Assembly: GCF_022045235.1 (NCBI RefSeq)
Contig: NW_027266341.1
Location: 39,618,001-39,682,000, forward strand
Length of the DNA stretch: 64,000 nucleotides
From: Haliotis cracherodii
Lineage: Eukaryota
Direction of reading: 5' to 3'
Numbering within the stretch: position 1 is the first letter of the stretch; each line of letters begins with the position of its first letter. A program made the position numbers and the translations under genes. A model generated the notes under the pieces. That model did not search any database and was not told where the DNA came from. It worked only from the letters and a program-made list of their open reading frames with translations. This document shows positions 5,901 through 62,140 of the stretch, one piece after another.

Positions 5901-8900
5901 TTCCAAAAAAGACCTGGTATGAGGGGTTTTTTCCTGGTAAGACCACTTGCACAAAGCGATCTTAGTGTTACAACTATTGTAAGCCTATGTTAAAGTATGG
6001 GAGTTACGATCATCTTAACGCTAAGATCGCTTTGTTCAAGTGGGCCCTGGTATGAGGTTTTACTTTTTCTTAGTAAGACCTGATGATTTGAGTAGTAGAT
6101 GAAATTTCCAAGGAAAACATCCAATGTGAAAACATGAAAAAACGTCCAATGTTCTAAAATTGAAGACAAGAAATGCAAGTTTTCATCATGGATGACAGGA
6201 ATCTAACTTACAAACTCGCATATCATGTTTAGTTTTGTAACCCACTGTTTTCCTTCCGAGCCACCGGGACAGTTGATGAAAAGTTGTTCAAATTTACATG
6301 TCATGAAACCAGTTACATTGTCAATACCCTCTTGCCTCAGTCTTACTTCCTTGACCATAACCTCAGAGTCATGCTTTATCCTTCACAAAGTTTAAGCACA
6401 TCTATCAGTGAGTGAGTTGGGTTTAACGCCGCTTTTAACAGTATTACAGCCTGAAGTGATGCAGGTCTCAGACGTTTACCACTTCGGTGAAACCCACGAG
6501 CACGGGAAAGTGCTGACAAACCTAGAAACATAATCGGGGCGAACCGGGAATCGAACCCACAATCATAGGTTTCTGGCGTGCCCAAGGGACGCAACTCTGC
6601 GCCTTAGGCGACTGGGCCTTCCGTGCCCCCCATCTATCAGTGAATATTAGAAGCTGACTAATTAAGCCATTCTTCATGCGCATCTAATGAAGACACTCTA
6701 TGACAGACAATCAATACAGGGCAAACTCGGTTGTACACAGGTTCTGCGTGCAAGTATTCTTGTAAACAGATATTGATGGCATTTTCACTGACATGAAACT
6801 CATCCAAATCTAGATTTCTCAATCATGACTTGAGAAAATTAGAATAAACAAAGATGCCATGCCAGTATGTTTACGACCTAACCTGATATACAAACATAAT
6901 TAAATGTAACAGAAACCTTGAGCTAGCCTTAATAAGGTCAGGGAAGCTAATAACAAGGCAGTGATAAGCATTGTTTGACAAATGTACAATTATAACAGTC
7001 AATCTTGGCTTCATTAACAATGTCGAAGAAATTCTACATACACATTGAAAAATGACACATACAAATGATTATAAATACATTCAACATTACACTTATGGAT
7101 GTGATAAATGAAACACAATGCATCAGAACTGAAATTAGTGAAAACAATGAATAATTCATTTGCTTAATCATTTATTAGAAAAAGAAGACATGGTACTGAA
7201 TCACATAATGCAAATTATGCACACATAAATCAGAGCTGTCCCTTATCAAATCTTCACTTCACACCTCCAACAGTAATGTTTTTGGCATAAATCAGGTCAT
7301 TCCCAAACTTTAATACCATTTCCTTTGTCGTCAATGGTGTTTCTTTCCCTATTCATTCTCCTGCCTCTAAGCCTCCTTAATCCAAGCATTCAAGCCAGAG
7401 AGGTCCTGAGTATCAATATTAGGCTGTGCTCAGTTGGAAACCTACCCACCCACACCCACACCCACACCCACCCACCCACACCCACACACACATACCTAAT
7501 CTCTCACTCACAATGTTGTACTTAAACCAAATAAGCAAAGACGCTTTAATATATTTTATTGTGGTAAACCAAGCACAGATCCATTTTTATACTAAGCACA
7601 TAAAAAGCATTTATTGCTGGATTCAGCTTTCTGACATATTTATTGTACATTTGGGTTGCATTAAGAACATTTCATCTCCATCATACTAACATATGATAAA
7701 ATCTCTTAATAGCTCCTGCCACAGTTAGTGGTCTCGTATCCATGGAAACAAGCATCAACATTTTTCAACAGTTGTAGCATAAAAGCAATTTTAGGCCATT
7801 AAGGCAGACATTTTCTGGTCTATCAGTGAGAAACCATTGTACATTTGTTTCTCTGGAACCATGATATTTTCATGCTATATTCATTACTGCTGTCATGGTG
7901 GTTGTAAATTTCTCTTGTTGCTGAATTACTGTCGAGAGTTTTTAAATGACAAAACTCAATAAAATCACTACATCAGATGAGAAAAAGCATAATTGTAAGA
8001 TAATGCTGATGTCACATGGTAACAAAGGGAGCTGATAGATTAGGAAAGAAAATTAATGGTAACATAATGTGCATATGAATATAAAACAATGAAGCCTTGT
8101 TAATTAAATATATCAAGCTATTCGGGAGTGAGGTGAAATGGGGTTTTATGTTGTGTTCAAGGCTGTTTCACTTACACAGCAACATGCATGTACGTGTAGG
8201 TGGGTGGCTGCTTTTACTAGTCCAGTGATTGATATTATGAGCATCAATCCACGCAATTGGGATACGATGACATGTATCAACCGAGTCAGCGAGCCTGACT
8301 ACCTGATCACATTAGTCTTGCAACAAGCATGGGTTGCTGAAGACCAATCCTAACCAGTGTCTTCCCAGGGTACTTAAATAGTGACAGTCACTTGAATATG
8401 GAGTACACCTACCATGTCCACTATACGCAATTGAGTGAAATCAAACAGTAGTATCAACTGGGTTAGGGAATCTAGTAAAGGCATGTAAGGCCAGACTATT
8501 GTTTGAAACTTGGTTTATGAATCTACTGACTCAAAAAGAATTGAAATGTGAAAAGCCAAAAAACAAAAAGCAATGGATTGTTTTATTCCTCCAACCAGAA
8601 ACCAAAAAGATGTAGAACAAAACACAATTCATTTGTAGTTGTTATCAACAAACAATTTAAAATACCATAATTAAAACATGTTGACAATTCGCCTTTTATT
8701 GCATTAAACATCCAATCCAGCCTAGATATTTGTTGTTTCTTTCCCTATTCTTCTTCACATCACTGCCCGTCTTTATAGTAATTTAGAAATTATTAGCTAA
8801 GCAGCCAATTTTTTCCTTACTAGGTCATAGAGCCAAGGCCTGACAAAAATAAGGTTGTCAATTTCCTTCCACTGGCCGAATCTCAGTGACTTGCATGGGG

Positions 8901-11900: not shown

Positions 11901-14900
11901 CCGGACTGACAAGAACCTTGAGGTTTTACTCTGCCATGCCCTTTCCCTACAAAAGTACTCCTGGTCTTGGCCGTCCTTGAGAGACGCGTGTCTAGGCTTA
12001 TAATTGCCTGGCTTGCCAGATCGCTGGGATAGACTTTGAGAGATGTGCTCTAGAGCCTTGAGTGTTGTCTCATCCCAAAAGTAACTGGAAACTTTGGCGT
12101 GCTGGTCTGTGATCTGTTCATTGAACAAAGAAGAAGATGACGAGGGTTGCCGTAGCCAAGTCTGCTTGTGACAGTAATCTCCACCAGAGCAGCTTTGAGA
12201 TGATTCCTCTGGTAGTCAATCTGACACAGTTGGGAAGTCCACTATAGTTTGGATATGATATGCCATATTTTCTTGAGTATCGTGCATACAAAAGTATAAT
12301 GCATACCCCCACTAGCGGATTCAGTATTTACGAAAAAAATTAATTAAAATATTATTAGCAGAAAAAAATTACACCGGACCCTTTCAGTGAATTCTGGTAA
12401 TCAAACGGGTGAAAAGAAACTAGATCAGTACAAATTTGAAATTAGAGACACAAAATCACCAGATATGTTGATCCTGCATCTAAATTATATTTTTTGTTCT
12501 GCTAGGCATTGTTTTACATCCATGGACTAAGATTATCTTGCGTATTTTCTCGTAAACTAAGACGAAAACAGCAATCAACTGTACACTCCTTTTCTTGGAA
12601 TCTGACGGTGATTCGGTTAAAACTTACCAAATTGATATAACTTTAAGGATTTTAATGCAGGAATCGGAAAAAATTGTATCTGAAACTATCTTTTTATCAG
12701 GAATAATATATTCCAATGTCATGTTATTTTAGTTTAGTTTAATTAAATATATTTCAAATAATAATAACCCAAAGAGTAGAACTTCGGTGCAGCTGATTGC
12801 GATTGCCGGTTATTATTTTCACATGGAACAATTGGACCAGTCACCGTCGAAGCTCCTGTGCACATGGTTACGAGAACTATGTGTTGACACAGAATTGTCA
12901 AACTACAACGAATATGACTTTTAACGAGTCAAAGTATGGCATTTATGATATATGTATCCATTCTCTGTCAGCTAAAGTCTGTTTTAAGGCGTCAATAGCG
13001 GTAATCTGAGTGGTTGCTGTTAATATAGTGAGTCATGCAATCTTCTGCTTGCTTCACACATGATTTCGCCACAATTAATTAAAATGATATTAAAGGGAAT
13101 TTTGAATAAAATTAATGTAAGTCCATAAACATAAGTCCAGATATTCAATGAACAATTTTTATAACCTGACAATGTAATTACATGATTAATAATCTGTACT
13201 TCAGTACAGATTTGTTGACATGGTATTTCCGGTGTTATGTGCTCACGGTATTGTCTTTGCTTTGGGGGGGAAAAAAAACATCAAACTCATTATGGCATGT
13301 ATAATGGGCACCCCTTGCACACTGTACTCAAGAAAATATGTTGTCCTCTGATAGATCCTGCTCTACCACACATGTTGACGATGCTAGTGCTGACAAAGGT
13401 TTCAATACCCGTCTGATTTCCGTTTCAATAAATCTGGTATCCTGTACCTTAAGGGTGGTTGGCCTTGACGAGCCTGTCATCCTTTGTATGCTTTCATCCA
13501 AACTAAGAGCTAGGTCTGGTACCACAAACGCATGGATAGGAAACTCATCCTTCCTAAACTTGGGTGGTTTAAATGATGGCGCAAGTGGTCTTCATCAAAT
13601 GACCTAGTCATATCTGTCAGCATAGGGTCGATAGGAATCGATGTAGGATGCGACCACAAGGTGTCCTTTTTATCCACCCCATTACCAAGGGAAGGCGCCA
13701 CTGACGAGATGGTCCCCTACATAATCGGGTACTGGCGCTAAGCCGAGATGCATATTCCATTCTACCAAGGAATCGTCATTTGATGAGTCTGACAAGTCAG
13801 AACAATGTTGATGTGTTCGCCTAGATGGTGATTGGCTTCTGCTCCGGTGTGTAGTGCTACCTCTGATAGAGGGCTTGGATGAGCCACCTGGTGAGAGGGA
13901 GTCATGCACCGATGTCCATGTACGCTCTGGGTTACTAGCGCTGCTCAGCGATGAATGTGCTGTACAGTGTTCCCTCGCTATTGCGTTCTTCGATATAGTG
14001 CTAAATCAGTTATAGTGTGCGGTAAACCATGGCTCCCAAAATTTACTAACATTTTTAATCAAGTTTTCAGGATGTTTTCCCCATTTCAGAAAACATTATC
14101 AGCCGATCACCAGAAATATCAGTCAACAAATCCAAACTGAAGTACGCAATAATTCTTATTATTATAATATCTGGTTATAAAAGAATTTGTTTATTGTTTA
14201 TCTGGACTAATGTTTGCAATATATTTTATTAACTTTATTCAAAATTTCATTCAATAATTATATTAATGTTTACAATAATTTCGGACGTTAAGTACAGCAA
14301 CCACGGTCCGATTACCGCTATTGATGCCTTGAAACGAACTTTAGTTGCAAGAGAATGGATACATATATCATAAATGCTGTACCATGACTCGCTAAAAGTC
14401 ATATTTGAGGCAGTTTGACCATCAAATGTCAACATACGGTATTCGCAATCAAAATAGATGTAGCACTGAATCACCAGTAGATTGGGAGGAAACGTGTGCA
14501 CAGCTGATTGCTATTTGTGGTTTAGTTTACGAGAAAATACACAAGGTAATCTTAATCTCTGCATATAAAATAATGGGTTTGTTGGTCATTTACCACCTAC
14601 CACTCAACGTCAGTTAAACCGCTGATCATCTGTAACGCTCATCAATTATTTGGACCCCGAAGGAAGCGTTGTAGCGAGGGATCACTGTACCAGGACATGC
14701 AATAGGCATATTGTAGGACGTTAGGTGCCGGGGGAGGCGCCAAGCCTTGTGTCATTGTTGTAGCTGACACTGGGGTCTGGTACATTGGCAAAAGGGTGGG
14801 ATACAGGTATGCCATAGACTGCTGCCACATGAACTGTATGAAGTTTTGCATCCAATTAGTGTTCTGGAACAGTGTTGATGCCTGAGCGTGCATCGGCTGC

Positions 14901-20900: not shown

Positions 20901-23900
20901 ATTATAAAATAATATAAAAAGGGTTTTGACTGCACAAAACCACTATCAAAACATTGATACAATTAATTTCATTGGTAAGAATCGGTGACTATTCATTTCT
21001 ACTTGTCACCAGAAACATCTCAACTGAGGTCAAAATATGAACATAGACAGTAAAATAACTATATTAAACTGTAATGGTATTCCTCTCACCCAATGAACCC
21101 TCTGTCAATGAAGTGCAAAGGCTGTCGATGATAGCAGACCTGCAACTACAAGTTGCCTTTCTGCCTTTTCTACGACTGAGAAAATACCTTCTTAAGCCAC
21201 AATTAGCCATTACAAAGCCTGCAGCCTGAACCAGACAAATCTGTGATTGTCTGTGACAGAATCAGCAAAGTGACACATTGTCCCACCTGATTTCCATTCC
21301 AATCACTTCTTACTTCAATCATGTAGTGGTTTTAAGTACAAAGGACCTATACAGTCACAGAATTTAAGTGATGACCAATCACCTCGTGTTCAGAACTTTA
21401 TCTCCAATGTGACAGCTCTGTGCGTGAAGGTCTGAGGACACCTTCATAGGTCATATCAGGTTAACTTTCTAATCGGTTAATCAGTGTCAAGATTTAAAGT
21501 CTCTGAATGAGTGAGAGAGGCATTCAGACATACATAAATATCATCATCATATGGTCATGGATATATAATACATCCCAAAAGGGTGCATATTTTAATTGTT
21601 TCCTGTCAAGGTTTTCTTTTGCAAAGATCAAATTTTTCAAATCAAGGTGGTAAAGAAATGAATCAAAATCATTTTTGAAAGCTGATATCTGATCAGTTCA
21701 AGAACCCATACTTCCCTCACTGAAATTAGGCCGTCAAAGTTCAGTGTTCACCAGAAGCAACAGCCTTCTATGGAGGTGTCCTCAAATCTTAGTGCATATA
21801 AGTATCGTATCAGAGTAAAAGATTCAATCTCATTAAAATCTAATCTTAGTGCTCACTTCTGCTATTATAGGTCATTTCATCCAACCAATTAGAGTGTCAC
21901 TTACAAGATTGCAATAGTGAAAATCTGAATGTGTTTACTAACATGCAACCTCAAGATGCTTAGCACGCAGGAATAATTCTAGGGTGGGGCCTTGTGCTTT
22001 TAGCCCCTAAATTTGAAATAAGGCCCACATTTTCAAATACAATGGGGCATTTTAACATTGTGCTCTATAGGCGTATCTCTGGAATATTTGAAATTGTCAC
22101 ATAAAGGGTCCATGTCAGAAAATTCAAACAGTGAACCCTAAGCATGGTACATTTCTAAAGACAGTTACGTGCTGCATGAATGCTAGACATGGACATGAAA
22201 AGCTCGGGATCTAAAATGGAAAAGAATTTCGTAGCCAGTGGAAAGGTATGTTCCGTTTTCAAGTTTTGAATTGACAACTTTGTCAAAATATTTTTCAAAG
22301 AGGAGTCTAGAATGGGAGTGACAATTTTGAAACTAGTGCCATTAAGCTTGAGAATGGTGCTTTCTGATTGGTTGATGCTGAATTAGTTATATCATTGGTC
22401 AGTGAAAGCTTACGAAAAGGCGTTCTGGCATGACCTGTAATAGGATGTCCTCAGATCATTGTGTAGTGGTAGCAAGTACTAAGTTCTGATTTTAACAAGA
22501 TTAATTGAGACTGAGTGATGAAAAAACTGGAACATACTAGACGTAATGCTGATATTCTGCTAAAATCCCACCAAACCTCCACCTCTCCAGTGCAACGTAA
22601 ATATGCTATATCCATTATCTGTGTGTTGTATTGTCTCTGTGGTCTCTCATCAAGGTACTGATCAATACTTGAAGTTATTAATATAGATCATATTACTGCT
22701 AGAAAGATATGGTTCAGAACCAGGACATCAAACAATACACAAACCAATACTCATAACTGCTGGGAAAACTAATGTCACACTTTTTGAGATTTTACAATGC
22801 ATATACCAGTGACATATTTCGTGTTATCTTATTTATGTACCGTATTTTCTTGAGTATAGTGCGCACTCATGTATAATGAGCACCCCCTTCTAGCGGGTTC
22901 AGTATTTTGAAAAAAAAAAAATCGAATACCAAGCGCAGAAAAAATTACACCGTACCCTTTCAGCGGGTGAATTTGAGATAAAAAAATCACCAGACATTTT
23001 GATTTACCGTTTAAATAGTATTTATTTTTCTGCTAGGCATTGTTTTATATCCAGGGATTAAGATTACCTTGTGTATTTTTTCGTAAACTAAGCTGGAAAC
23101 AGCAATCAGCTGTACACACCTTTTCTTGGAATCGACCGGTGATTTGGTCAAGACACACCCAATGATATAACTTAATAGGATTTTTATGCAAGGATCGGCA
23201 AAAGTTGTATCTGAAACTATTTTTTTATCAGGACATATATGTTCAGCTTTTACTAAACATATTTAAAATAATAATAACCCTAAGCGAAGCAGCTGATCGC
23301 TATTCCCGGGTATTATTTTTTACATGGAACCAGTCTGACCAGTCACCGTCAAGGCTCACGTGCACGTGATCGCGAGAATTACGTGTTGACATAGAATCAT
23401 CAAACTACAACAAATATGACTTTTAACGAGTCAAAGTATGGCATTTATGATATATGTATCCATTCTCTGTCAATTTAAGTTCCTTTCAAGGCGTCAATAG
23501 CGGTAATCTAAGCGTGGTTGCTGTTAATAATGGTGAGTTGTGGGATCTTCCAATCGCTTCACACACGATTTCGCCGAAATTAATAAAAACAATATTAAAA
23601 GGAATTTTGAATAAAATTAATGAAATAAGTTACAAACAAAAGTCCAGATATACAAAGAACACTTTTTATAGCCAGACAGTAAAATCAGTATGGATTTGTT
23701 GACATTGTATTTCCAGTGTCTCGTGCTCACGGTAATGTCTTTCCATGGGGGAAAAAAACATCCAAACTCATAATTTGTGTATAATGCGCACCCCCTTCTA
23801 CACAGCTGTGTTTTTTTGAAAAAAGTGTGCACTATACTCAAGAAAATACGGTACATAGAATAAAAGAAGAGACCTTGTGACACAATTATATCATACAAAA

Positions 23901-26900: not shown

Positions 26901-29900
26901 CACAGTAATGCTCTAAAACAATGACAAATTCAGTTTGAAGTGAATATCTGTTACTATTAAATAAATGTTCAAAAATGAAGAACATTTGAGGCCCAAAATA
27001 TCAACATGGAATTACAAATGAGCCTGATAACTTGTCATGTTAATTTGACAAACGATCTGCTCATGTATTGATCAGGTGTTACAACCAGCTTCCAACAGTA
27101 ACATAACTGTAAATCAGCAAGCAGTCCTGAGAGGATTACAACTGTATCATTGACTGATGCTGATGTTTTTGCCTTGACCTCTCCAGATTCCAGACATCTA
27201 CTGATGCCAAACCACTGCTTAAATAAACATTAATAAATTGCATGCGATATCAACACTAACAACAGGCAAAATAACATTTCATATAAATCATTCAAATACA
27301 AGTTTTCTTTCTCTGTAGATTTTAATCTTACAGTATTGACTGCCAAAATGAGAATTATTTACAGGAGAATGTTCTGCAGATTTCTTACATCTATATAATT
27401 AAACAACATGTATGCTGTAAAAAGATTTACAATTGTAACACAGTAACATGACCGATGTGTTTATCACCACAGTGAACTAGCCGGCTTCAAGGACACCATA
27501 TGGCAAGAGTTGTGAGTGAGGTCTCACTACATATAAAGTAAATGTAACTGTAAATTCATAGAAATTCACCAACAAGATTTCCATGTGCCAGATAAACATC
27601 TACTTCTGGAGAAGCTCTGATGGCTGAACAAAGGCTGAACATAGATTAACCTGACTGACCTGACGGCCATCTGAAACCCTATCTTCTGAATCATTTACAG
27701 TTTAGGTCTTTTCACACTTTCAGCCTGTGCTCAAACTTGTCCTGGCAACAAGGCCAAAATTGTCATTCAACATCTTTTTAAGTAGATTTTTTACATTGCA
27801 TGTTACTAGCTAAAAATAAATTTTATGAGCTCAAAAGAAATTTTACGACATTCAGGCTTTCGAAACAGTTAAAGGGCATCATAAATAGTATGTATGAAAT
27901 TTGTTATTGCAATATGTTTGGGGAACAACTAGTTGCAGACTTCCTTTGACATGTGGTACTAAGCAGAACATATGCACCCCCCAGTCAAATTCCTTTTTGT
28001 CTTTCTGTATAGTAAGCTTAACTCATACTAGCCCATTACATATTTACATCCAAATCTGATAAATCTGCTGCCAATAGAGAAGTACAGGCTAGAAAGCCTG
28101 AATGACTTTGACACACCTTTTTTCAACCTTGAAGAATTAAGATGAAGGATGAAATGCTGTATAACACTGAACTAACTCCAAGAGTCTTGTTTCATTTCTG
28201 TTCACAATGTCATTCCATGTTAAAAGATCACTACAGTTAGTAGAACTAGCACATTTCACTGAACAATTCTTAGTCCTTTTACACGCATCAAATATTTACA
28301 TTACAAAGATATTTAGTACCGTATATTGCCATCTACAAAGCGACCCAAGATATAAGCCACCTTCCCCCCCTCAATAAAGTAAATCGGAATGAAGCATATG
28401 ACACAATCCCTACATCTGCAATACAAATGTGTTTGCATCTGCAGAAAAAAAGATTGTATCCCTTCAGCGAATTTAAGGAAATGAAAAGATCACAACAATT
28501 AAACTTGGTCAATACAAATTTGAAATTTGAGATAAAACATCACTAGATATGATGATTTACCCATAAAATTGTATTTCCTGTTCTGATAGCCATTGTTTTA
28601 TATGCAGAGATTAAAATTGTCGTGTGTATTGTCTCATAAACTAAGCCGGAAGTAGCAATCAGCTGTGCACGTTTTTCAGAATCTACTGGTGATTCGGATA
28701 AAAATTACCCAATAATATAACATTAAAGAATTTTGATGCAGTGATCGCAAGAATTGTATCTGAAACTATTATTTTATCAGGAATAATTTATTCCAATATC
28801 ATGTTATTTTGGCTGCAGCTTTACTATATATATTTGAAAGAAATTAATAACCATAAGCGTAACACTTTTGTACAGCTGATCGCTATTGCTGGATATTTTT
28901 CCGTATGGAACATTTTGACCAATCACCGTCAATTCCCGCACTCGCGCTAACAAAAACTTTATGGAGACATATAATAGTCAAACTACAACAAATAATATGA
29001 CTTTCAGCGAGTCAATGTATGGCGTTTATGACATATATATCCATTCTTTACTGGTCTACCCACGAAAGTATGTTTCAAGGCATCAACAGCAGTTATCTGA
29101 CTATGGTTGCTGTAAATAATTGTGAGTTGTGCGATCTTCTGATCACTTCACATACTATTTCTCCGAAATGAATGTAAACAATATGGAATGAAATTTTGAA
29201 CAAAATTAATATAATAGATTACAAATATCAGTCCAGATATACAATGAACACTTTTTATAACCAGACAGTGATACTTCATGATTAGTTTATGTACTTCAGT
29301 ACAGATTTGTTGACATAGTATTTCTGGTATTACATGTTCACAGTAATCTCTTTGTGTTGGGTAAAAAAACATCCAAACTCTTCAAACGTGTGTATAAGAC
29401 GACCCCCTATTAAGCCCCTAATTCTTGGTACAAAAACTTGCCTTATACACAGCAGTATACGGTCTATATATAAAATGCCGCTCTAGTAGTTTTTCTGGAC
29501 CTGTGAAGATCTGGGGTAGAATAGCAATCCAGGCTTGTGTGGTCAGACTCGCTGACTTGGTTGATGCATGTCATCATATCCTAATTGCGTGGATCGATGC
29601 TCATGATGTCAATCACTGGATTGTCTGGTCCAGACTTGATTATATACAGACCACCGTCATAAAGCTGGCATATTGCTGAGTGCAGCGTTAAACAACAAAC
29701 AAACAAAACTAATGTTTTTTTCTGCATGATACATGCACTGTTGAAATTGTTGTAAGATGAAGTAAGACGAGTTCTATGGATGAACAACTTCTTTATTACA
29801 ATTAGTGCGACGTTTCGGTGTAGATTCCTAACACCTTTATCAAGCAAACTCTTCAAACCTGTGTATAAGACGAACCCCTTGGAAGCCTCTAATTCTAGGT

Positions 29901-32900: not shown

Positions 32901-35900
32901 CTGCATATCATGTAAACTTCACATTAAAATGTTTTTAATGTTAACCCCTACTTAACATCAAGAAATTCTGTAAAACAGTAATAGTTTCTGCTTAAAGGCT
33001 GCCCAAACAAATTGAGCATTTGCCTCTCACAAATTAACACAGGTCTGTAGCTCCGTTAGGAGCGAGCAAGTGAGTAAAAATTTAAAGTACATCAGCAATA
33101 TTGTGACGAGTACAATTTATACATGAATAATAAATACATTCAGACAACATTAAAACCTGTCACAAAATACAGTAAAACAACTGGTGTATCACAGAGTTAT
33201 ATTAAAACTAGCATATTACCATAAACAAATATAAACAACAATACAAATTACAATATAAAAACAGGCTATAGATCACTAGCAATCAAAGTCTGGCCACCAT
33301 ACCAGGGACAATTGGGGCTTACTGTACCTCTGCTTTCTGCATGGTACTCCAGCAGGATTTACACCTGTCACTGGTGATTATGGACATGGTTCAGCCAGAG
33401 ATAAACAAACAAATAAAGCACTGGTAGACTCAGTAGACCCCTCACCCCTTCAGAGCATAGAACTTGTTATGTTTGTAAGAAAGTGGAAACAGAAGTTCAT
33501 TTCCTTTGAGAGAGTAATTTTCATAAGGACCTAAGGAAAAACATTAGCTTATCTTGTTACAATTCTACAGAACCTTAAGATCTATTCATTAAATTGTTAT
33601 CTGAAAATAATCCTTAGCGCATCCATGTTTTGCTTCGACCATAAGAAACATGTTTTTTACACAACAACTTCTCACATGATACTTGCATTGTTTATTTTAT
33701 AACGATTGTATCATAGTAAATAGCATTTTATAGTACATAACATAATAAATAAGTGGTGTCTCGTAAGCGAAGATATGGCTCGATATTAAGACCCGTGAAG
33801 AATCCGGGGTAGAATAGGTCTTCAGCAACCCATGCTTGCCGTAAAAGGCGACTATGCTTGTCGTAAAAGGCGATTAACGGGATCGGGTGGTCAGGCTCGC
33901 TGACTTGGTTGATGCATGTGATCGATTCCAATTGCGTGGATTGATGCTCATGATATTAATCACTGGATTGTCTGGTCCAGACTCGATTATTTACAGACCG
34001 CCGTCATATAGCTGGAATATTGCTGAGTGCGGCGTTAAACAACAAACCAACCAACCAATCTTTTACTGTGCTATGAAATGTGTTAGCTATGTGAATAAAA
34101 CTTGTGACACTTTCATAAACTATGTCAGTCTGTCTGTCAGTCAGTCATAAAAAGACTTTGAATGATGTGGGCTTACTTACCCTAGCCGGGGGAAAAGGAC
34201 CCTGAATACAAGCAGATATATGCTCAACACTCTTCAAATGTACACCCCAACAATCCCAAAAAGTCTATTATATGAGAGTAAGATAACAGTGGAACAGTGA
34301 AAAGCTTTTAACTTTAATATAGTCTAAGTCAATGATTATTCTTTAGATTCATGTCATGAATTACATGTATTATGACGACTGTAAAACAACCTGTGATTTG
34401 GACCTTTGATGGAGGTAAACAAAACTCCTACCAGGAGTGCATACACATTACTAATGGTAAAACATCGTATGATAAAGACTCAAGTGACTGCGGTGACAAA
34501 CTACTGAAACATATTTCATTATCAAACCTTCACCTGTCAGACAATTAAACACGAAAACAATTCCAACTGCAAAGACAGAAGGAGTATCAACACTGTCAAT
34601 ACTTTCTGAATCAAGTTTCAATCTCTAAACTAATGTATTAATACATTTGACATGAGCAGAGCATGTTACAAGTATTAATGAAGGTAATTCATTATCACTG
34701 ACTGAAAATGCTTTGTATTTTCAGGAAGAGTATCACACATATCACAAAGTGATTAGTGTTCAGGGTGATTTGAGGTGTATTAAGAATGAAATCTCCAGCA
34801 GTAGTTAGCAAATGCCAAGACAGAAATCAGCCAAATGAAGTCAAATTTCAACAATCGAGATATGTTTTTCCCTCAAACTGATTATCCTAATCACATCAAA
34901 ATTAAAATACATTAACTTCTACTTAAAATACCACTGATAGTGGCCTGATTTTGTCACAGAAGTTTTACCCACGTTGTATCAATTGAATCTGATGAAATTG
35001 CTATTTCATTAATTCAGAAACAAATGACACACTTTCCAGGAGAAGACCTTTTAATCAGATTACTTTTCTCTCCTCTTCAGTGGTTCAATGGAGGTGAAAA
35101 ACATCAGAATCCAGTAAGATCCTCCTTAAGTAAAGAAAGTCAACAAGCTATGAAGCGCAAGCACCTGAGCCTATTAGATTTAGTTTGAGGTAACAGGTTT
35201 ACAGTAATGCCCCCTCTCCTATCAGAGTGGCAAGAATCAGTGAGAGTCAGAAGGGATTACCCAGTTCACACTGCAACTTCCTCCAGCTCTCCTCACATTT
35301 TACTGATGGATACATGCTACCTTCTCATCAACTTCCAATACATCTTTTTCACCTAAAATGTTTCAATCAACTTGATAAGAAGACATTGTTACAGTGTTAG
35401 AAATTTCTTTACTTTTTTTTCAACATATCTCTCAATTGGTTTGAACCATTCTTGAGACAGGCAGTAATTATATTTGCCTGCAATGTTTCTCAGCTGGCAC
35501 AGAGTGAGGACTCGAGTCACCCTGACCTCCCTGGTGTAGCCCACTGTGGCTGGCGCCTAACCTCAGATGGCAATAATTCGCCACTTTCTACATTCTCAAC
35601 ATGCTCTTGTTCATGTAAACATTACTTTGCCATTTCTGTCATTAGAATAACTATTTCACATAGGCAACTTTGGATGACATATAGCGGCAAAATAAAAACA
35701 AAAGACCTGTATTGCTCACCTGGATATTAACACAATCATGACAAAATATACATTTGCATTGTACATACCATATTCGAGCCATTAAGCCCCCCTCTCCCAA
35801 TAAGCGCCGCCCGAGGTTTCCGGATATTTGAAGTCCGTATAAGCGTGGCATGACTGTATTCTGTATATTTTAGATATTTGTGACTTTGAATATTCTGCGC

Positions 35901-38327
35901 AGAAAAAAATTACACCGTACCCCTTCAGCGAAGTCCGGCAAACGAACGGGTGATGAGAAACTTGGACAGTACAAATTCAAAATTTGAGATAAAAAAATCT
36001 TCAGACATGTCGATTTACCGTTTAAATTGTATTTTTTGTTCAGCTAGGCATTGCTTTATATCCAGGGATTAAGATTACCGTGTGCATTTTCTCGTAAACT
36101 AAGCCGGACACAGCAATCAGCTGTACACACGTTTTCTTGGAATCTACCGGTGATTCGATCAAGACACACCCAATGATATAACTTTACAGGATTTTAAATG
36201 CAAGGATCGTCAAAAGTTGTATCTGAGACTATTTTTTTATCAGGAATAATATATTCCAATATCTTGTTAATTTAGATGCAGCTTTTACTAAACATATTTA
36301 AAATAATAATAACCCTAAGCGAAGTAGCTGATCGCTATTCCCGGGGATTATTTTTACATGGAACCAATCTGACCAGTCACCGTCAAATCACGAGAATTAC
36401 GCGTTGACATAGAATTGTCAAACAAAAACAAATATGACTTTCAGCGAATCAAAGTATGGCATTTATGATATATGTATCCATTCTCTGTCAACTAAAGTTT
36501 GTTTCAAGGCGTCAACAGCGGTAATCTAAGCGTGGTTGCTGTTAATAACGGTGAGTTGTGCGATCTTCCGATCGCTTCACATACAATTTCGCCGAAATTG
36601 ATTAAAACAATATTAAAAGGATTTTGAATAAAATTAATGAAATAAGTTACAAACAAGTCCAGATATACAAAGAACACTTTTTATAGCCAGACATTGTAAT
36701 TACATGAATAATTTGCGAACTTCAGTATTCCAGTGTTACGTGCTCACAGTAATGTCTTTCCATGGGGGAAAAAACATCAAAACTCATTAATTCCTGTATA
36801 ACGCGCACCCCCTTCTACACAGCTGTGTTTTTTTGGAAAAAAAAGTGTGCACTATTCACAAGAAAATACGGAAAGGCTTACTGATGAATTTACGCCAATT
36901 TGACTCCCAAATTGGGATCAAAGCTTTGTACGTATCAAATTAACCAGAGTGATTGGGGCCAGCACTAAGCAATTCACTTGTTATATGTTTCAAACAGTTT
37001 GTCTCACAATAATTATTCTTTCATGTTCTCAGACTTATTTTTCAGTTTTTATGTACACACCCAACAAAAGCCTGTTTCTTTTTGATGTCACAAGAGAATA
37101 ATGACTGAGTGAGTGCAGTATGGTATCACATCACTTCTGAAAATATTCCAGCCATATTCCAGCAGTGGTCACTGAGCCAACCACCAATGTCAAACGAAGT
37201 CCATTGTTTTGCTGGCATACTGTGATTTGGATAGGAAACTATATGGTTTGCAACATGTTTGGGCATGATGGCCTTTACATAGAGGATATTATATGAGTGT
37301 TCATGTCATACTATGTTTACGACATGAGTGTCAAAATTCCGGTATTTCCCAAGGGAAAGCGAGAGTAATACCAGCATTTAGGCACGAGTGTCGTAAACAT
37401 TACATGAAATGAACATAAATATAAAGTTCCATTTATTAATGAAGAAGATGTCTACATACAGAGATAAGTCGCAACAGCAGCGGAACCACAATTTGTAGAA
37501 CGATGTCAACAATCTTCAGCTCACGTCACAATAAGATTCAAATTATGACAACAATGCCGTCCTGATGACGGAAACAATACACTGTTGTCTTCAGTTTCTT
37601 ATTAAACTCACTTTTGTGATTTAAGTGGATTTGACATACCTTAACAATTCAAAAAGTTTACAAAACGTTTGTATTGAATCGTTAAAAACATTTGCTTGAA
37701 AATAGTGACATAAAGCAAGCAAAATTATTTTTCATCCCTTTTGGTGTGTTCCATAAAATCTACAACTCGAAATATAATTTCAATTGGACATGCATGAGGG
37801 GACACCTGATGACTGATGTACAAACAAGTCAAAGGATCGGGAATATGATGGCTCATTAGCACACTTTCCCCAGTTTGGCAGAGGTAGAATGGAGCTCTCT
37901 GATACTTGACCTCTGTTGTGTTTCTTGACATAACCTGAATTCACATGTACATCATGCGTTGGCACCCGTGACCTTTTATTGGTCAATGTTGCAAATCTTG
38001 CAAAAATTAACGGTTAATAGTCTACTCAGTATTGAACATTTTGACGTTAGGCTCCGAACAGAGTTCATCAGTTGAACATCATATCTCCAACTTAACCATT
38101 TATGTGTCTAATTATGTCTTGATAACATTCTTTCACAGGCAAAGTAATTGACAGTATAACACTGAAACAAGTATAACCATAAACATGGAAACATCTATTA
38201 AATAAACATTCTACTAACCTTGCAAGGTTTGTCAAAGAGTGGCATGGTGGGGCTGTCAGAGGCGGAAGTATTGGCTTTGGTGGCTCTCTCTTTCTGCGCC
38301 AACTCACGGAGACGCTCCTTGTCATGT
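2942..38327 (-). CDS. lilli: AF4/FMR2 family member (lilliputian/AFF4-like SEC scaffold), partial multi-exon CDS: join(38327-38219, 26636-25662, 25222-25175, 24258-24163, 19979-19946, 2999-2942); continues off the left edge
   Basis: Six GT-AG exons with mutually compatible phases (2-0, 0-0, 0-0, 0-0, 0-1, 1-2). The spliced product HDKERLRELAQKER...PLFDKPCK|VQNSNEGDDINQKIRQVLGEF...KLPKLLIQSE|NNAPSSGIEGLHDIFN|EMRSIPAPVSEINTP parallels AFF4 motifs PLFAEPYK..LSSRIQSMLGNY and [31 protein letters not shown] in the same order. Confidence 0.9.
5670..5788 (-). other. tRNA-like Pol III cassette (A and B boxes), probably part of a repeat and not a functional tRNA
   Basis: GGAAGCCTCGGTGGCTGAGTGG...GGTTCGAATCCCGG. 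The 5' and 3' ends do not form an acceptor stem, and the central region is oversized. Confidence 0.6.
5941..6047. mobile_element. ~107-bp palindromic MITE
   Basis: ccacttgcacaaagcgatcttag / ctaagatcgctttgttcaagtgg inverted arms, embedded in cctggtatgagg repeats (5858-6085). Confidence 0.75.
6412..6630 (-). mobile_element. Second tRNA-headed SINE family
   Basis: GGGGGCACGG head, B box GGTTCGATTCC, (ACTC)n tail, 13-bp TSD CATCTATCAGTGA. Confidence 0.9.
7443..7493. repeat. (CACACC)n-type microsatellite
   Basis: Direct reading of the sequence. Confidence 0.9.
8128..8372 (-). mobile_element. Same retroposon family, diverged copy with (CCTCA)-type tail
   Basis: Reverse complement reads accctgggaagacactggttaggattggtcttcagcaacccatgcttgttg...gactaa. 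Confidence 0.75.
8932..9990 (-). pseudogene. DIRS tyrosine recombinase, frameshifted
   Basis: Fragments YDDKWGPFETFC, WDLKVVL, VRALRVFI..SK..R, TISLWLRAVI, PHEIRVLAST, FASHYL. Confidence 0.85.
9853..9914 (-). mobile_element. 62-bp retroposon 3' tail inserted in the DIRS YR gene
   Basis: Perfect 15-bp TSD GTCCTCTGGTAGAGG (9838-9852, 9915-9929) and a (TGAGG)n tail. Confidence 0.85.
9994..11800 (-). pseudogene. DIRS pol: reverse transcriptase, RNase H and methyltransferase-like domains, disrupted
   Basis: ORF fragments 10905..11327, 10401..10823, 10124..10429 and 9994..10230, plus GFYSHIFLVPKK near 11570-11600. Confidence 0.88.
12263..13341 (+). mobile_element. Type-B MITE copy nested in DIRS ORF1
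   Basis: Degenerate TIRs ccatattttcttgagtat / tactcaagaaaatatg. Body collinear with 22840-23851. Confidence 0.85.
13965..14687 (-). mobile_element. Tigger/pogo-type MITE (CAGTG ends) carrying part of the shared core, nested in DIRS ORF1
   Basis: TIRs CAGTGTTCCCTCGCTA / TAGCGAGGGATCACTG with TA on both flanks. ~14120-14590 is the reverse complement of the core. Confidence 0.85.
16200..16425 (+). repeat. Diverged dispersed repeat; further copies at ~21600-21840 and ~22250-22505
   Basis: Shared gaaagctga.atctgat.g.tca.gaacc, gtcaaag, cctca.atc, gtaaaagatt blocks. Confidence 0.55.
17400..17546 (+). mobile_element. Degenerate, deleted copy of the same family
   Basis: ggggttataattggtcttcagcagcccatgc, ctcatgatgtcaatcactg, aaacaacaaacaaac. 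Confidence 0.6.
19946..19979 (-). CDS. lilli: AFF small exon, 34 nt: DVTPPNSDIGK+G
   Basis: ttttctgttacag|GAT...AAA G|gtatgt. Phase 0-1 bridges exactly between the 24163 donor and the 2999 acceptor. Confidence 0.7.
22840..23851 (+). mobile_element. Non-autonomous Tc2/pogo-type element (end type B) with the shared core, 1012 bp
   Basis: TIR CCGTATTTTCTTGAGTATAGTGC(G/A)CAC. TA TSD within a palindromic target, tatgTAcata. Confidence 0.92.
24163..24258 (-). CDS. lilli: AFF exon, 96 nt: EMRSIPAPVSEINTPRKSEEKLSFQIPPKLGK (ELL-binding region homologue)
   Basis: tttgtttggcag|GAA ATG...GGA AAG|gtaaga. Resembles AFF4 [16 protein letters not shown]...KFPFP. Confidence 0.88.
25175..25222 (-). CDS. lilli: AFF exon, 48 nt: NNAPSSGIEGLHDIFN
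   Basis: cttacatcttttcag|AAT...TTC AAT|gtaagt. Phase 0-0. Positionally equivalent to AFF4 ...VDEILK. Confidence 0.85.
25351..25416. repeat. (GTGTGG/GAGTGG)n G-rich microsatellite
   Basis: Direct reading. Multiple GGG runs. Confidence 0.9.
25662..26636 (-). CDS. lilli: AFF large exon, 975 nt (325 aa): DDINQKIRQVLGEF motif, His/Ser/Gly-rich disordered region, KLPKL motif
   Basis: Lies inside ORF 25614..26711. Acceptor ttctctttctttggttgaag|GTC, with an alternative in-frame cag 6 nt downstream. Donor GAG|gtagga. Confidence 0.92.
28319..29462 (+). mobile_element. MITE with type-A-like ends and the shared core
   Basis: Left end ta|ccgtatattgcc..taca aagcgaccc. Right end gccttatacacagcagtatacgg resembles 1131-1155. 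Interior ~28440-29380 matches the core. Confidence 0.8.
29498..29706 (+). mobile_element. Same retroposon family, internally deleted copy
   Basis: acctgtgaagatctggggtagaatag...gtggtcagactcgctgacttggttga...(caaa)n. Confidence 0.8.
29845..29934 (+). mobile_element. Solo right-end fragment of the type-A/core MITE
   Basis: caaactcttcaaac.tgtgtataagacga...aaaactcgccttatacacagc repeats 29374-29462. Confidence 0.7.
30236..30565 (-). mobile_element. Old SINE body (Nin/Deu-domain-like) with an adjacent tRNA-SINE 3' fragment (~30490-30565)
   Basis: Reverse complement has gtcagtatactgtg..gagtgggg and ..gcactataaa blocks. 30490-30565 matches 1471-1556. Confidence 0.5.
30900..31950 (+). mobile_element. 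Possible very old Penelope-like RT relic
   Basis: Only weak cross-frame resemblance to the Penelope RT C-terminus (NFS...Y.YL..., K..NQG). No intact motif. Confidence 0.25.
32103..32267 (-). mobile_element. 5'-truncated copy of the second SINE family
   Basis: Matches 44562-44731. TSD tcaccactg(t/c)atgag. Confidence 0.85.
32415..32950 (+). repeat. Old dispersed repeat, paralogous to 42508-42975
   Basis: Shared gaacctgtggc, cattgaaaggtga, agatgtgtcaaatagatacttaggtaaattca, gatgggtcgtag, taaacttca. Confidence 0.75.
33791..34059 (+). mobile_element. Headless Meta/MESC-domain-like retroposon with (AACC)n tail
   Basis: acccgtgaag..ccggggtagaataggtcttcagcaacccatgcttg.cgtaa.aggcgactaacggg. The 3' end ggaatattgctgagtgcggcgttaaac is shared with the tRNA SINEs. 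The domain name is from memory and unverified. Confidence 0.8.
34181..34201 (-). CDS. Candidate 21-nt AFF microexon, GPFPPAR
   Basis: atatctgcttgtattcag|GGT CCT TTT CCC CCG GCT AGG|gtaagtaag. Consensus donor, phase 0-0 inside a phase-0 intron, no stop codon. Confidence 0.5.
35768..36871 (+). mobile_element. MITE with the shared core, a type-B right end and a different left end
   Basis: Left end ta|ccatattcgagccattaagcccc. Right end gtgtgcactattcacaagaaaatacgg. Core ~35897-36790. Confidence 0.8.
37286..37436. repeat. Second ~150-bp hairpin of the same architecture
   Basis: tgttcat.tcat..atgtttacgaca.gagtg / cacgagtgtcgtaaacat..catgaaatgaaca, centre gggaaagcgag. Confidence 0.55.
38219..38327 (-). 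CDS. lilli: AFF exon, 109 nt: N-terminal helix plus PLFDKPCK motif (first half of the P-TEFb/cyclin T-binding segment)
   Basis: tttatgcttccag|A CAT GAC AAG GAG CGT...CTC TTT GAC AAA CCT TGC AAG|gttagt. The ORF track shows only another frame here. Confidence 0.88.
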
Positions 38328-61887: not shown

Positions 61888-62140
61888 GTTAGTATGTTTG
61901 TTTCACACTGCATGCAGTCACATTCCAGCCATATGACGGCGGTCTGTAAGTAATCGAGTTTGGACCAGACAATTCAGTGAATGACATCATGAGCATCGAT
62001 CCATGCAATTTGGATACAATGACATGCATGAACCAAGTCAGCAAGTCTGACCACCTGATCATGTTAGTCGTCACTTACAACAAGCATAGAAGCCTCTTAC
62101 GACAATTATGGGTTGGTGAAGACCTATTCTAACCCAGATA
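61888..62140 (-). mobile_element. Same retroposon family, diverged copy
   Basis: Reverse complement reads atctgggttagaataggtcttcaccaaccc...gtcgtaagagg...gactaac. Confidence 0.8.

Follow-up and report, generated by a model that had tools for sequence, protein, structure and literature searches.

A pseudoknotted RNA head common to abalone LP-type SINEs, I/Nimb-type LINEs and viral 3′ UTRs, and its possible role as a block to exonucleases

LP-type SINEs in the abalone genome

The window analysed here is a 64,000-nt stretch of the Haliotis cracherodii genome (contig NW_027266341.1, positions 39,618,001 to 39,682,000) that carries four copies of a SINE without a tRNA head. The full-length copy, which belongs to a duplicated-hairpin subfamily of the LP type, lies on the forward strand at 33790–34058 with its first base, G1, at 33790. 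Its structured head (33790–33881; 52.5 bits against model R2) comprises a T-loop-type hairpin and two pseudoknots, and its 3′ tail with (CCAA)n repeats (33998–34058) is homologous to the tails of tRNA SINEs and to the 3′ end of an I/Nimb-type LINE. No target-site duplication (TSD) is recognisable at this copy, whose start the sequence-only reading had set at 33791. The second copy (29498–29709, +) starts at G1 and has had helices P3 and P4 removed by an internal deletion, the third (8221–8371, −) starts at position 2 with a damaged hairpin and a missing 3′ part, and the fourth (61898–62140, −) starts at position 13 with its hairpin duplicated; the hairpin is lost from the copies at 29498 and 8371. 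These starts agree with the earlier proposal that the copies begin at the boundary of an RNA motif or just inside it. The tandem duplication of a 22-nt hairpin unit that was also proposed is found at 33832–33853/33854–33875 and near 62065–62106 (four pattern matches, none in 100 shuffles). A tail common to the headless copies and the tRNA SINEs was recovered by alignment with tRNA-headed SINEs, such as the one with A and B boxes at 1466–1630 (−), which serves for comparison only. The window also holds an approximately 1-kb repeat in four direct copies (12325–13299, 22863–23824, 28523–29464 and 35866–36841) and one inverted partial copy (14188–14576), possibly a non-autonomous DNA transposon.

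Across the genome the copies share a sharp 5′ boundary. When 40 of 2942 first-look candidates were scored, the best 30 copies all started at or next to G-ACCCGUG, with unrelated flanks and with TSDs in most. A body-only query, which avoids selecting for the 5′ end, was run over 60 evenly placed 10-kb stretches (600 kb) and gave 93 matches, three of them cut by locus edges. Starts fell at positions 1–6 in 46 matches, 7–20 in 11, 21–60 in 17, 61–95 in five and further in for 14; at that density the genome would hold roughly 1.8 × 10^5 copies. A B box is absent from the 100 nt upstream of all 56 full-length copies, as expected if the family has no A/B-box tRNA head; these copies measure 247–269 nt, with G at +1 in 46 and a TSD of 8–16 bp in 35. 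The same counts refute a reverse transcriptase stop, one of the two causes first offered for the 5′ end, because such a stop should leave copies truncated on the 3′ side of the fold, whereas 46 of the 93 read through it and only five end in positions 61–95.

Judged by its sequence motifs, the head is what Matetovici 2016 (PMC4758252) described as the ‘Nimb-17 homology’ (LP) domain, because its AGAAU and CGUAAGAGGCGACUAA motifs are also present in the scallop domain of Suppl. Fig. S2 of that paper. The authors describe LP-SINEs in Haliotis of 255 bp whose first ~70 bp are common to Nimb and RTE LINEs, suggest a promoter role for the domain, mention an analogy with the Pr77 ribozyme, and report that the LP head replaces the tRNA head in oyster SINEs. 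By comparison of domain motifs and description, rather than of the Hdi_LP sequence, the SINE is probably a member of the Hdi_LP/Hmi_LP family, with which it shares a ~70-nt head as at Nimb/RTE LINE 5′ ends, the lack of a tRNA head, TSDs, a tandem-repeat tail and a length of about 255 bp. The AATATA/ACTAAA hexamer of the LP-SINE paper is not exact, reading AATATT instead. A Meta/MESC identity did not hold up. MetaSINEs always have a tRNA promoter followed by the Meta domain (Nishihara 2016, PMC4824008), and although these too are mollusc SINEs, and scallop MESC SINEs bear the LP head as an add-on (PMC4824008, PMC4758252), the abalone SINE lacks the tRNA head and its own head matches, by eye, the Nimb-17 block and not the MESC block. 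The snail SINE Pan_3, the 5′ end of which is given as undetermined, also contains the core motif (PMC4758252, Suppl. Fig. S7). A SINE family of metagenome hosts (L085, L088, L094, L123 and L131) has a tRNA-like head immediately after the motif, an arrangement also seen in scallop MESC SINEs.

The SINE type and the sequence domain are thus known, while the structured RNA and its surprising spread are so far undescribed. The portions of the 2016 paper considered here (PMC4758252) give neither a fold, nor a viral occurrence, nor an upstream ribozyme for the LP domain. A search of the open literature, with subscription journals, Repbase and Dfam outside its scope, found no account of the fold or of a link between viruses and retroposons, so an earlier description may exist; the 18-nt core string did not occur in the literature among the matches listed.

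A conserved RNA fold

The sequence-only reading had placed at the 5′ end a closing stem, a GAAGA/UCUUC stem whose loop forms a pseudoknot, and a GUCG hairpin. These stems can pair in the window copy at 33791 (closing stem 5/5, pseudoknot 4/4), and the nested-fold energy of this single copy is no better than that of shuffles (z −0.62). We aligned 20 instances from animal retroposons and viral records by sequence alone with MAFFT; the rows are chosen, intact-looking copies, with 6 of 26 candidates excluded for long or irregular loops. Over this alignment the GAAGA/UCUUC stem (93%) and the GUCG hairpin were retained, and the closing stem (paired in 49% of cells) and the pseudoknot (73.5% and 48.5% for its halves) were rejected together with the topology that they define. 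The head does covary across the 20 instances, but not in the fold first drawn.

The order of elements that emerges is S1a-U-S2a-S1b-loop-AGAAUA-S2b-P3a-P5a-P3b-N-P4-UAA-P5b. In S1, the 5′ CCG pairs with the CGG following the first strand of S2 in 91.7% of cells over the 20 instances; in the window copy its 5′ strand (33792–33795) pairs with 33805–33808 at 4/4 positions, and the single nucleotide U33796 after the 5′ strand forms the crossing loop of this first pseudoknot. S2 (33797–33823) is a 7-bp helix of 33797–33803 with 33817–33823 that encloses the S1 3′ strand and the conserved AGAAUA (33811–33816); six of its seven pairs form in this copy, and across the 20 instances all seven show both-sided changes. 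Directly after S2, RNAalifold added helix P3 (33824–33858; 33824–33827 with either 33855–33858 or 33833–33836), which is 90% paired, with CCC in its loop at 33829–33831 and, in this subfamily, the degenerate first copy of the duplicated hairpin unit at 33832–33853. P4 (33860–33874) is a hairpin of 4 bp with a 7-nt loop, and GGG at 33879–33881 is the 3′ strand of P5, the second pseudoknot, which joins it to the P3 loop by only 3 bp in the window copy. P4 is invariant in the 20 rows, an invariance that the search pattern imposes in part; variants of its loop across 65 LINE copies follow U-A-N-R-A-G-G, which we take to be a T-loop pattern and use as a label, and the loop may dock as a T-loop.

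The four-helix model pairs 93.5% of cells with both-sided change at 10 pairs, and its covariation over the 20 instances reaches 0.60, compared with 0.19 in shuffled alignments (0 of 500 as high) and at most 0.13 when the model is slid. The second pseudoknot, formed by the P3 loop and the segment after P4, scores 11.4 for cognate strands against 9.1 when lineages are swapped (1 of 10,000 swaps), with weak pairing in 4 of the 20 rows. Independently of the choice of rows, 10–11 of the 11 S1 and S2 pairs form in 54 of 115 parseable matches to the 18-nt core (29 further matches lack an anchor or flank, and family members are not independent), compared with 54 of 3000 random sequences. Scallop copies from the 2016 supplement, which lie outside the modelling set, fit the same helices by eye. 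The head is therefore a fold of ~70 nt made up of a 5′ H-type pseudoknot, P3, a T-loop-type hairpin and a second pseudoknot. In one family (L082, L105, L106 and L136) the loop before AGAAUA contains a (TAAG)n-rich insert of ~60 nt, and so tolerates large insertions.

Rfam returned no family match over the motif (window at E ≤ 10; 17 other loci at E ≤ 1), in keeping with the earlier statement that the topology lies outside the catalogued ribozyme classes, and the features of hammerhead, twister, twister-sister, pistol, hatchet and hairpin ribozymes were likewise absent under the same searches. The HDV-like ribozymes of non-LTR elements (R2, RTE, L1Tc Pr77) resemble the motif in being 5′-terminal double pseudoknots. 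The pseudoknots of the motif, however, are serial rather than nested, it lacks P3/L3, P1.1 and the J4/2 cytosine, and Rfam is blank over it, so that it is not an HDV-like ribozyme.

The motif behind a LINE ribozyme and in viral 3′ UTRs

A search with the ORF1 protein from one motif-bearing contig identified, in the same genome, an I/Nimb-type LINE of ~6.1 kb encoding endonuclease, reverse transcriptase and RNase H. The motif is present in 28 of 30 LINE loci, ~60 nt inside the 5′ end and ahead of ORF1; these copies and the SINE head are 79–82% identical over 62 nt, and the SINE tail aligns with the 3′ end of the LINE as well as with the tRNA-headed SINEs of the window. Across 65 LINE copies the helices of the motif are kept, with a compensatory change in S2. 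The first 58 nt of the LINE, directly upstream of the motif, are a predicted, minimal HDV-like ribozyme with a 7-bp P1 containing a G1·U pair, P2, P3, L3, a GG P1.1 and a J4/2 cytosine. Eighteen of 27 parsed copies are perfect and 26 retain the J4/2 cytosine; scores against RF02682 are 27.5–29 bits in 4/4 loci, below the gathering score of 44. A TSD adjoins G1 of this module in 19 of 26 LINE copies. In the part of Kojima 2018 (PMC5786205) considered here, 5′ ribozymes are attributed to six LINE clades that do not include I/Nimb. The LINE copies are densely clustered in the genome (G000, loci L210–L244 and L361–L430), for example at C2:20.9–21.7 Mb.

A motif-only pattern gave 742 matches in the genome, and among the first 30 loci, which include neighbouring duplicates, the whole ribozyme is kept in 29, one copy starts inside the ribozyme and none starts at the motif. 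The upstream module is likewise kept in 27 of 28 loci from the ORF1 search. Extra bases at the 5′ end occur in 13 of 27 SINE copies versus 7 of 26 LINE copies (p 0.16).

Beyond the abalone genome, the 18-nt core was matched at no fewer than 120 metagenome loci (≥120), mostly high-copy families, at nine viral loci and at 13 loci in prokaryote assemblies. The viral records accepted are six small ones (L181, L182/L187, L184, L186, L188 and L311), a large DNA virus of 212,482 bp (L183), and L309/L312. Five of the six small records carry a Pfam RdRP or RNA-virus capsid gene, and L181 has no Pfam match. In all six the motif lies on the sense strand, with 5–197 nt separating it from the last long ORF upstream and no more than 108 nt from the contig end, and in two of them (L181 and L311) it occurs in tandem. 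The motif thus lies 3′ of the last ORF in five +ssRNA virus lineages; in the large DNA virus it sits between genes. This sense-strand placement after the ORF, together with the intergenic copy, argues that the motif acts as RNA. A model built without the viral rows scores the viral-collection copies at 35–75 bits.

Looser viral patterns returned mostly chance matches, the only new ones being L311 and L309/L312. In the latter, which are viral-collection contigs of 31 kb and 76 kb, a divergent full motif (L309:1487–1561, and L312) lies within a long intergenic region that is itself structured; the ORFs tried near the motif have no PHROG or Pfam match. L307 (17.6 bits) and L450 (15.1 bits) were not accepted as the motif, and L185/L189 together with the assembly matches L190, L191, L198 and L202, all below 25 bits, were treated as chance. 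BLAST found no match in phage and plasmid records, and a 27-nt pattern found none in metagenomes. A bacterial element was considered and rejected. Single matches in three bacterial assemblies sit at the ends of contigs, close to them, or next to long simple repeats, and the motif is present in 0 of 150 other genomes of the order of one such host, so the high-scoring bacterial matches are likely eukaryotic contamination. Retroposon sequence lies within bacterial assemblies, mostly at contig ends (L194:99–183, L199, L201, L195 and L200), with a 9-bp TSD by eye in L194.

In four metagenome-host families conservation begins one purine, that is 1 nt, before the C run of S1. Five families have a purine as their first base; the scallop family begins with C, and in the copies of the 2016 supplement its ends are ragged within the C run. 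Loose ends in sequencing-run contigs repeat the DNA boundary only.

Possible functions of the head

The head may quite possibly be a roadblock to 5′-to-3′ exoribonucleases that gives promoterless retroposons a fixed 5′ end, a reading modelled on its fold and placement that we favour, tentatively, because this one function would fit the SINE starts, the retention of the motif in LINEs, the viral 3′ UTRs and the tandem copies. Host read-through transcripts of the SINE would be trimmed by an exoribonuclease up to the fold, leaving an RNA that has no promoter but a fixed 5′ end and that could be copied from its shared tail by the reverse transcriptase of an I/Nimb-type LINE, presumably the one described above. 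In the LINE, the fold would be a second safeguard for the end that the HDV-like ribozyme leaves uncapped; in viruses, a short 3′ subgenomic RNA would remain. A 5′-OH end cut by a ribozyme is already a poor substrate for Xrn1, so the LINE may need the motif for another job.

Viral xrRNAs (flaviviral classes 1 and 2, plant-virus classes and coremin) resemble the motif, as far as they are described in the sources considered, in being compact, in having two pseudoknots of which one involves the 5′ end, in their 3′ UTR placement and in their tandem copies, which the flaviviral xrRNAs also form (PMC12081666). The motif differs in lacking their three-way-junction core and any Rfam match to a described class, and in having a T-loop-type hairpin, a presence in cellular retroelements and a resistance that is only predicted. 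At class 1 xrRNAs the enzyme comes to a halt ~4 nt before it reaches the pseudoknot, and ~5 unpaired nt are required by Xrn1 (PMC12081666); with only 0–1 nt before S1 in the elements, S1 would need to be partially unwound, as in class 2. Against a block, too, H-type pseudoknots of frameshift sites fail to stall Xrn1 (PMC10321173), and the purine at the first base in five families fits a transcription start.

If the head does block exonucleases, it would add to the xrRNAs a class found in cellular mobile elements, and to Pol III heads, internal promoters and ribozymes another route to a retroposon 5′ end. We consider it possible, with more doubt than confidence, that a new exonuclease-blocking class has been exchanged among animal RNA viruses, a large DNA virus and non-LTR retrotransposons, and that decay enzymes carve SINE 5′ ends from read-through RNA with no need of a Pol III head or ribozyme. 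A domain unexplained since 2016 can now be tested as an RNA fold, one backed by strong natural covariation, and retrotransposon 5′ ends become linked to viral 3′ UTRs.

It is unlikely, though the placement of the motif lends the idea some weight, that the fold instead substitutes for a cap by binding a translation factor or the ribosome, acting like a 3′ CITE in viruses, like an IRES in uncapped LINE RNA and as a ribosome tether in SINEs, with the SINE 5′ ends set by an overlapping internal promoter. Where viruses have tombus- or noda-like genes, the motif follows closely on the stop codon, and in the LINE it precedes ORF1; retrotransposon RNAs cut by HDV-like ribozymes require cap-independent initiation (PMC6765202), and the +1 purine of five families would suit a promoter. 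Such a reading nevertheless requires two functions, and the SINEs are non-coding; the scallop starts are C and ragged, and there is no sequence-fixed A box, the candidate stretch covarying as S2.

Self-cleavage, the other cause first offered for the 5′ end, would make the head a new ribozyme class, releasing the element from host transcripts by a cut immediately 5′ of S1. Sharp 5′ ends behind arbitrary flanks are what such a cutter would leave, the compact double pseudoknot with invariant loop bases has the look of one, and a review describes for HDV-like ribozymes a spread similar to the one seen here over retroposons, a large DNA virus and unclassified viral contigs. We nonetheless regard it as improbable. 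The LINE motif is internal, and cutting at its 5′ edge would remove the upstream ribozyme from daughter copies, yet that module persists in 29 of 30 loci of one set and 27 of 28 of the other. The HDV P2 helix could hide the cut site, but the motif keeps its helices even so and therefore probably serves a purpose other than cutting. In RNA viruses, single or tandem cutters would remove the 3′ ends of the genome, and across viruses and LINE no base is conserved at the would-be cut site. What survives of the proposal that the retroposon begins at a pseudoknotted RNA is a tRNA-less, conserved head of no catalogued class, without the topology and the self-cleavage first ascribed to it.

Processing by a host endonuclease is more improbable still. 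RNase P would cut before the first purine if the T-loop and the 12-bp S1 and S2 stack mimicked a tRNA elbow, and mascRNA is processed by RNase P in a comparable way. The U-A-N-R-A loop variants and the purine at +1 would suit it, as would the oyster SINEs in which the LP head takes the place of a tRNA head, but the motif occurs in cytoplasmic RNA viruses, the LINE is uncut at the motif, and the 3′ end of the fold is not acceptor-like. A DNA-level internal promoter as the sole function, the 2016 proposal, is consistent with the 5′-end placement in SINEs and LINEs but is largely refuted, with very little probability left to it, by the covariation of the helices and by the presence of the motif in viruses with RdRP or RNA-virus capsid genes.

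As a separate observation, S2 and the AAUA loop end of the SINE (33797–33823) are nearly identical to P2 and J4/2 of the LINE HDV-like module (L240:2114–2171), a likeness of sequence that hints at recombination between the modules or at a common origin.
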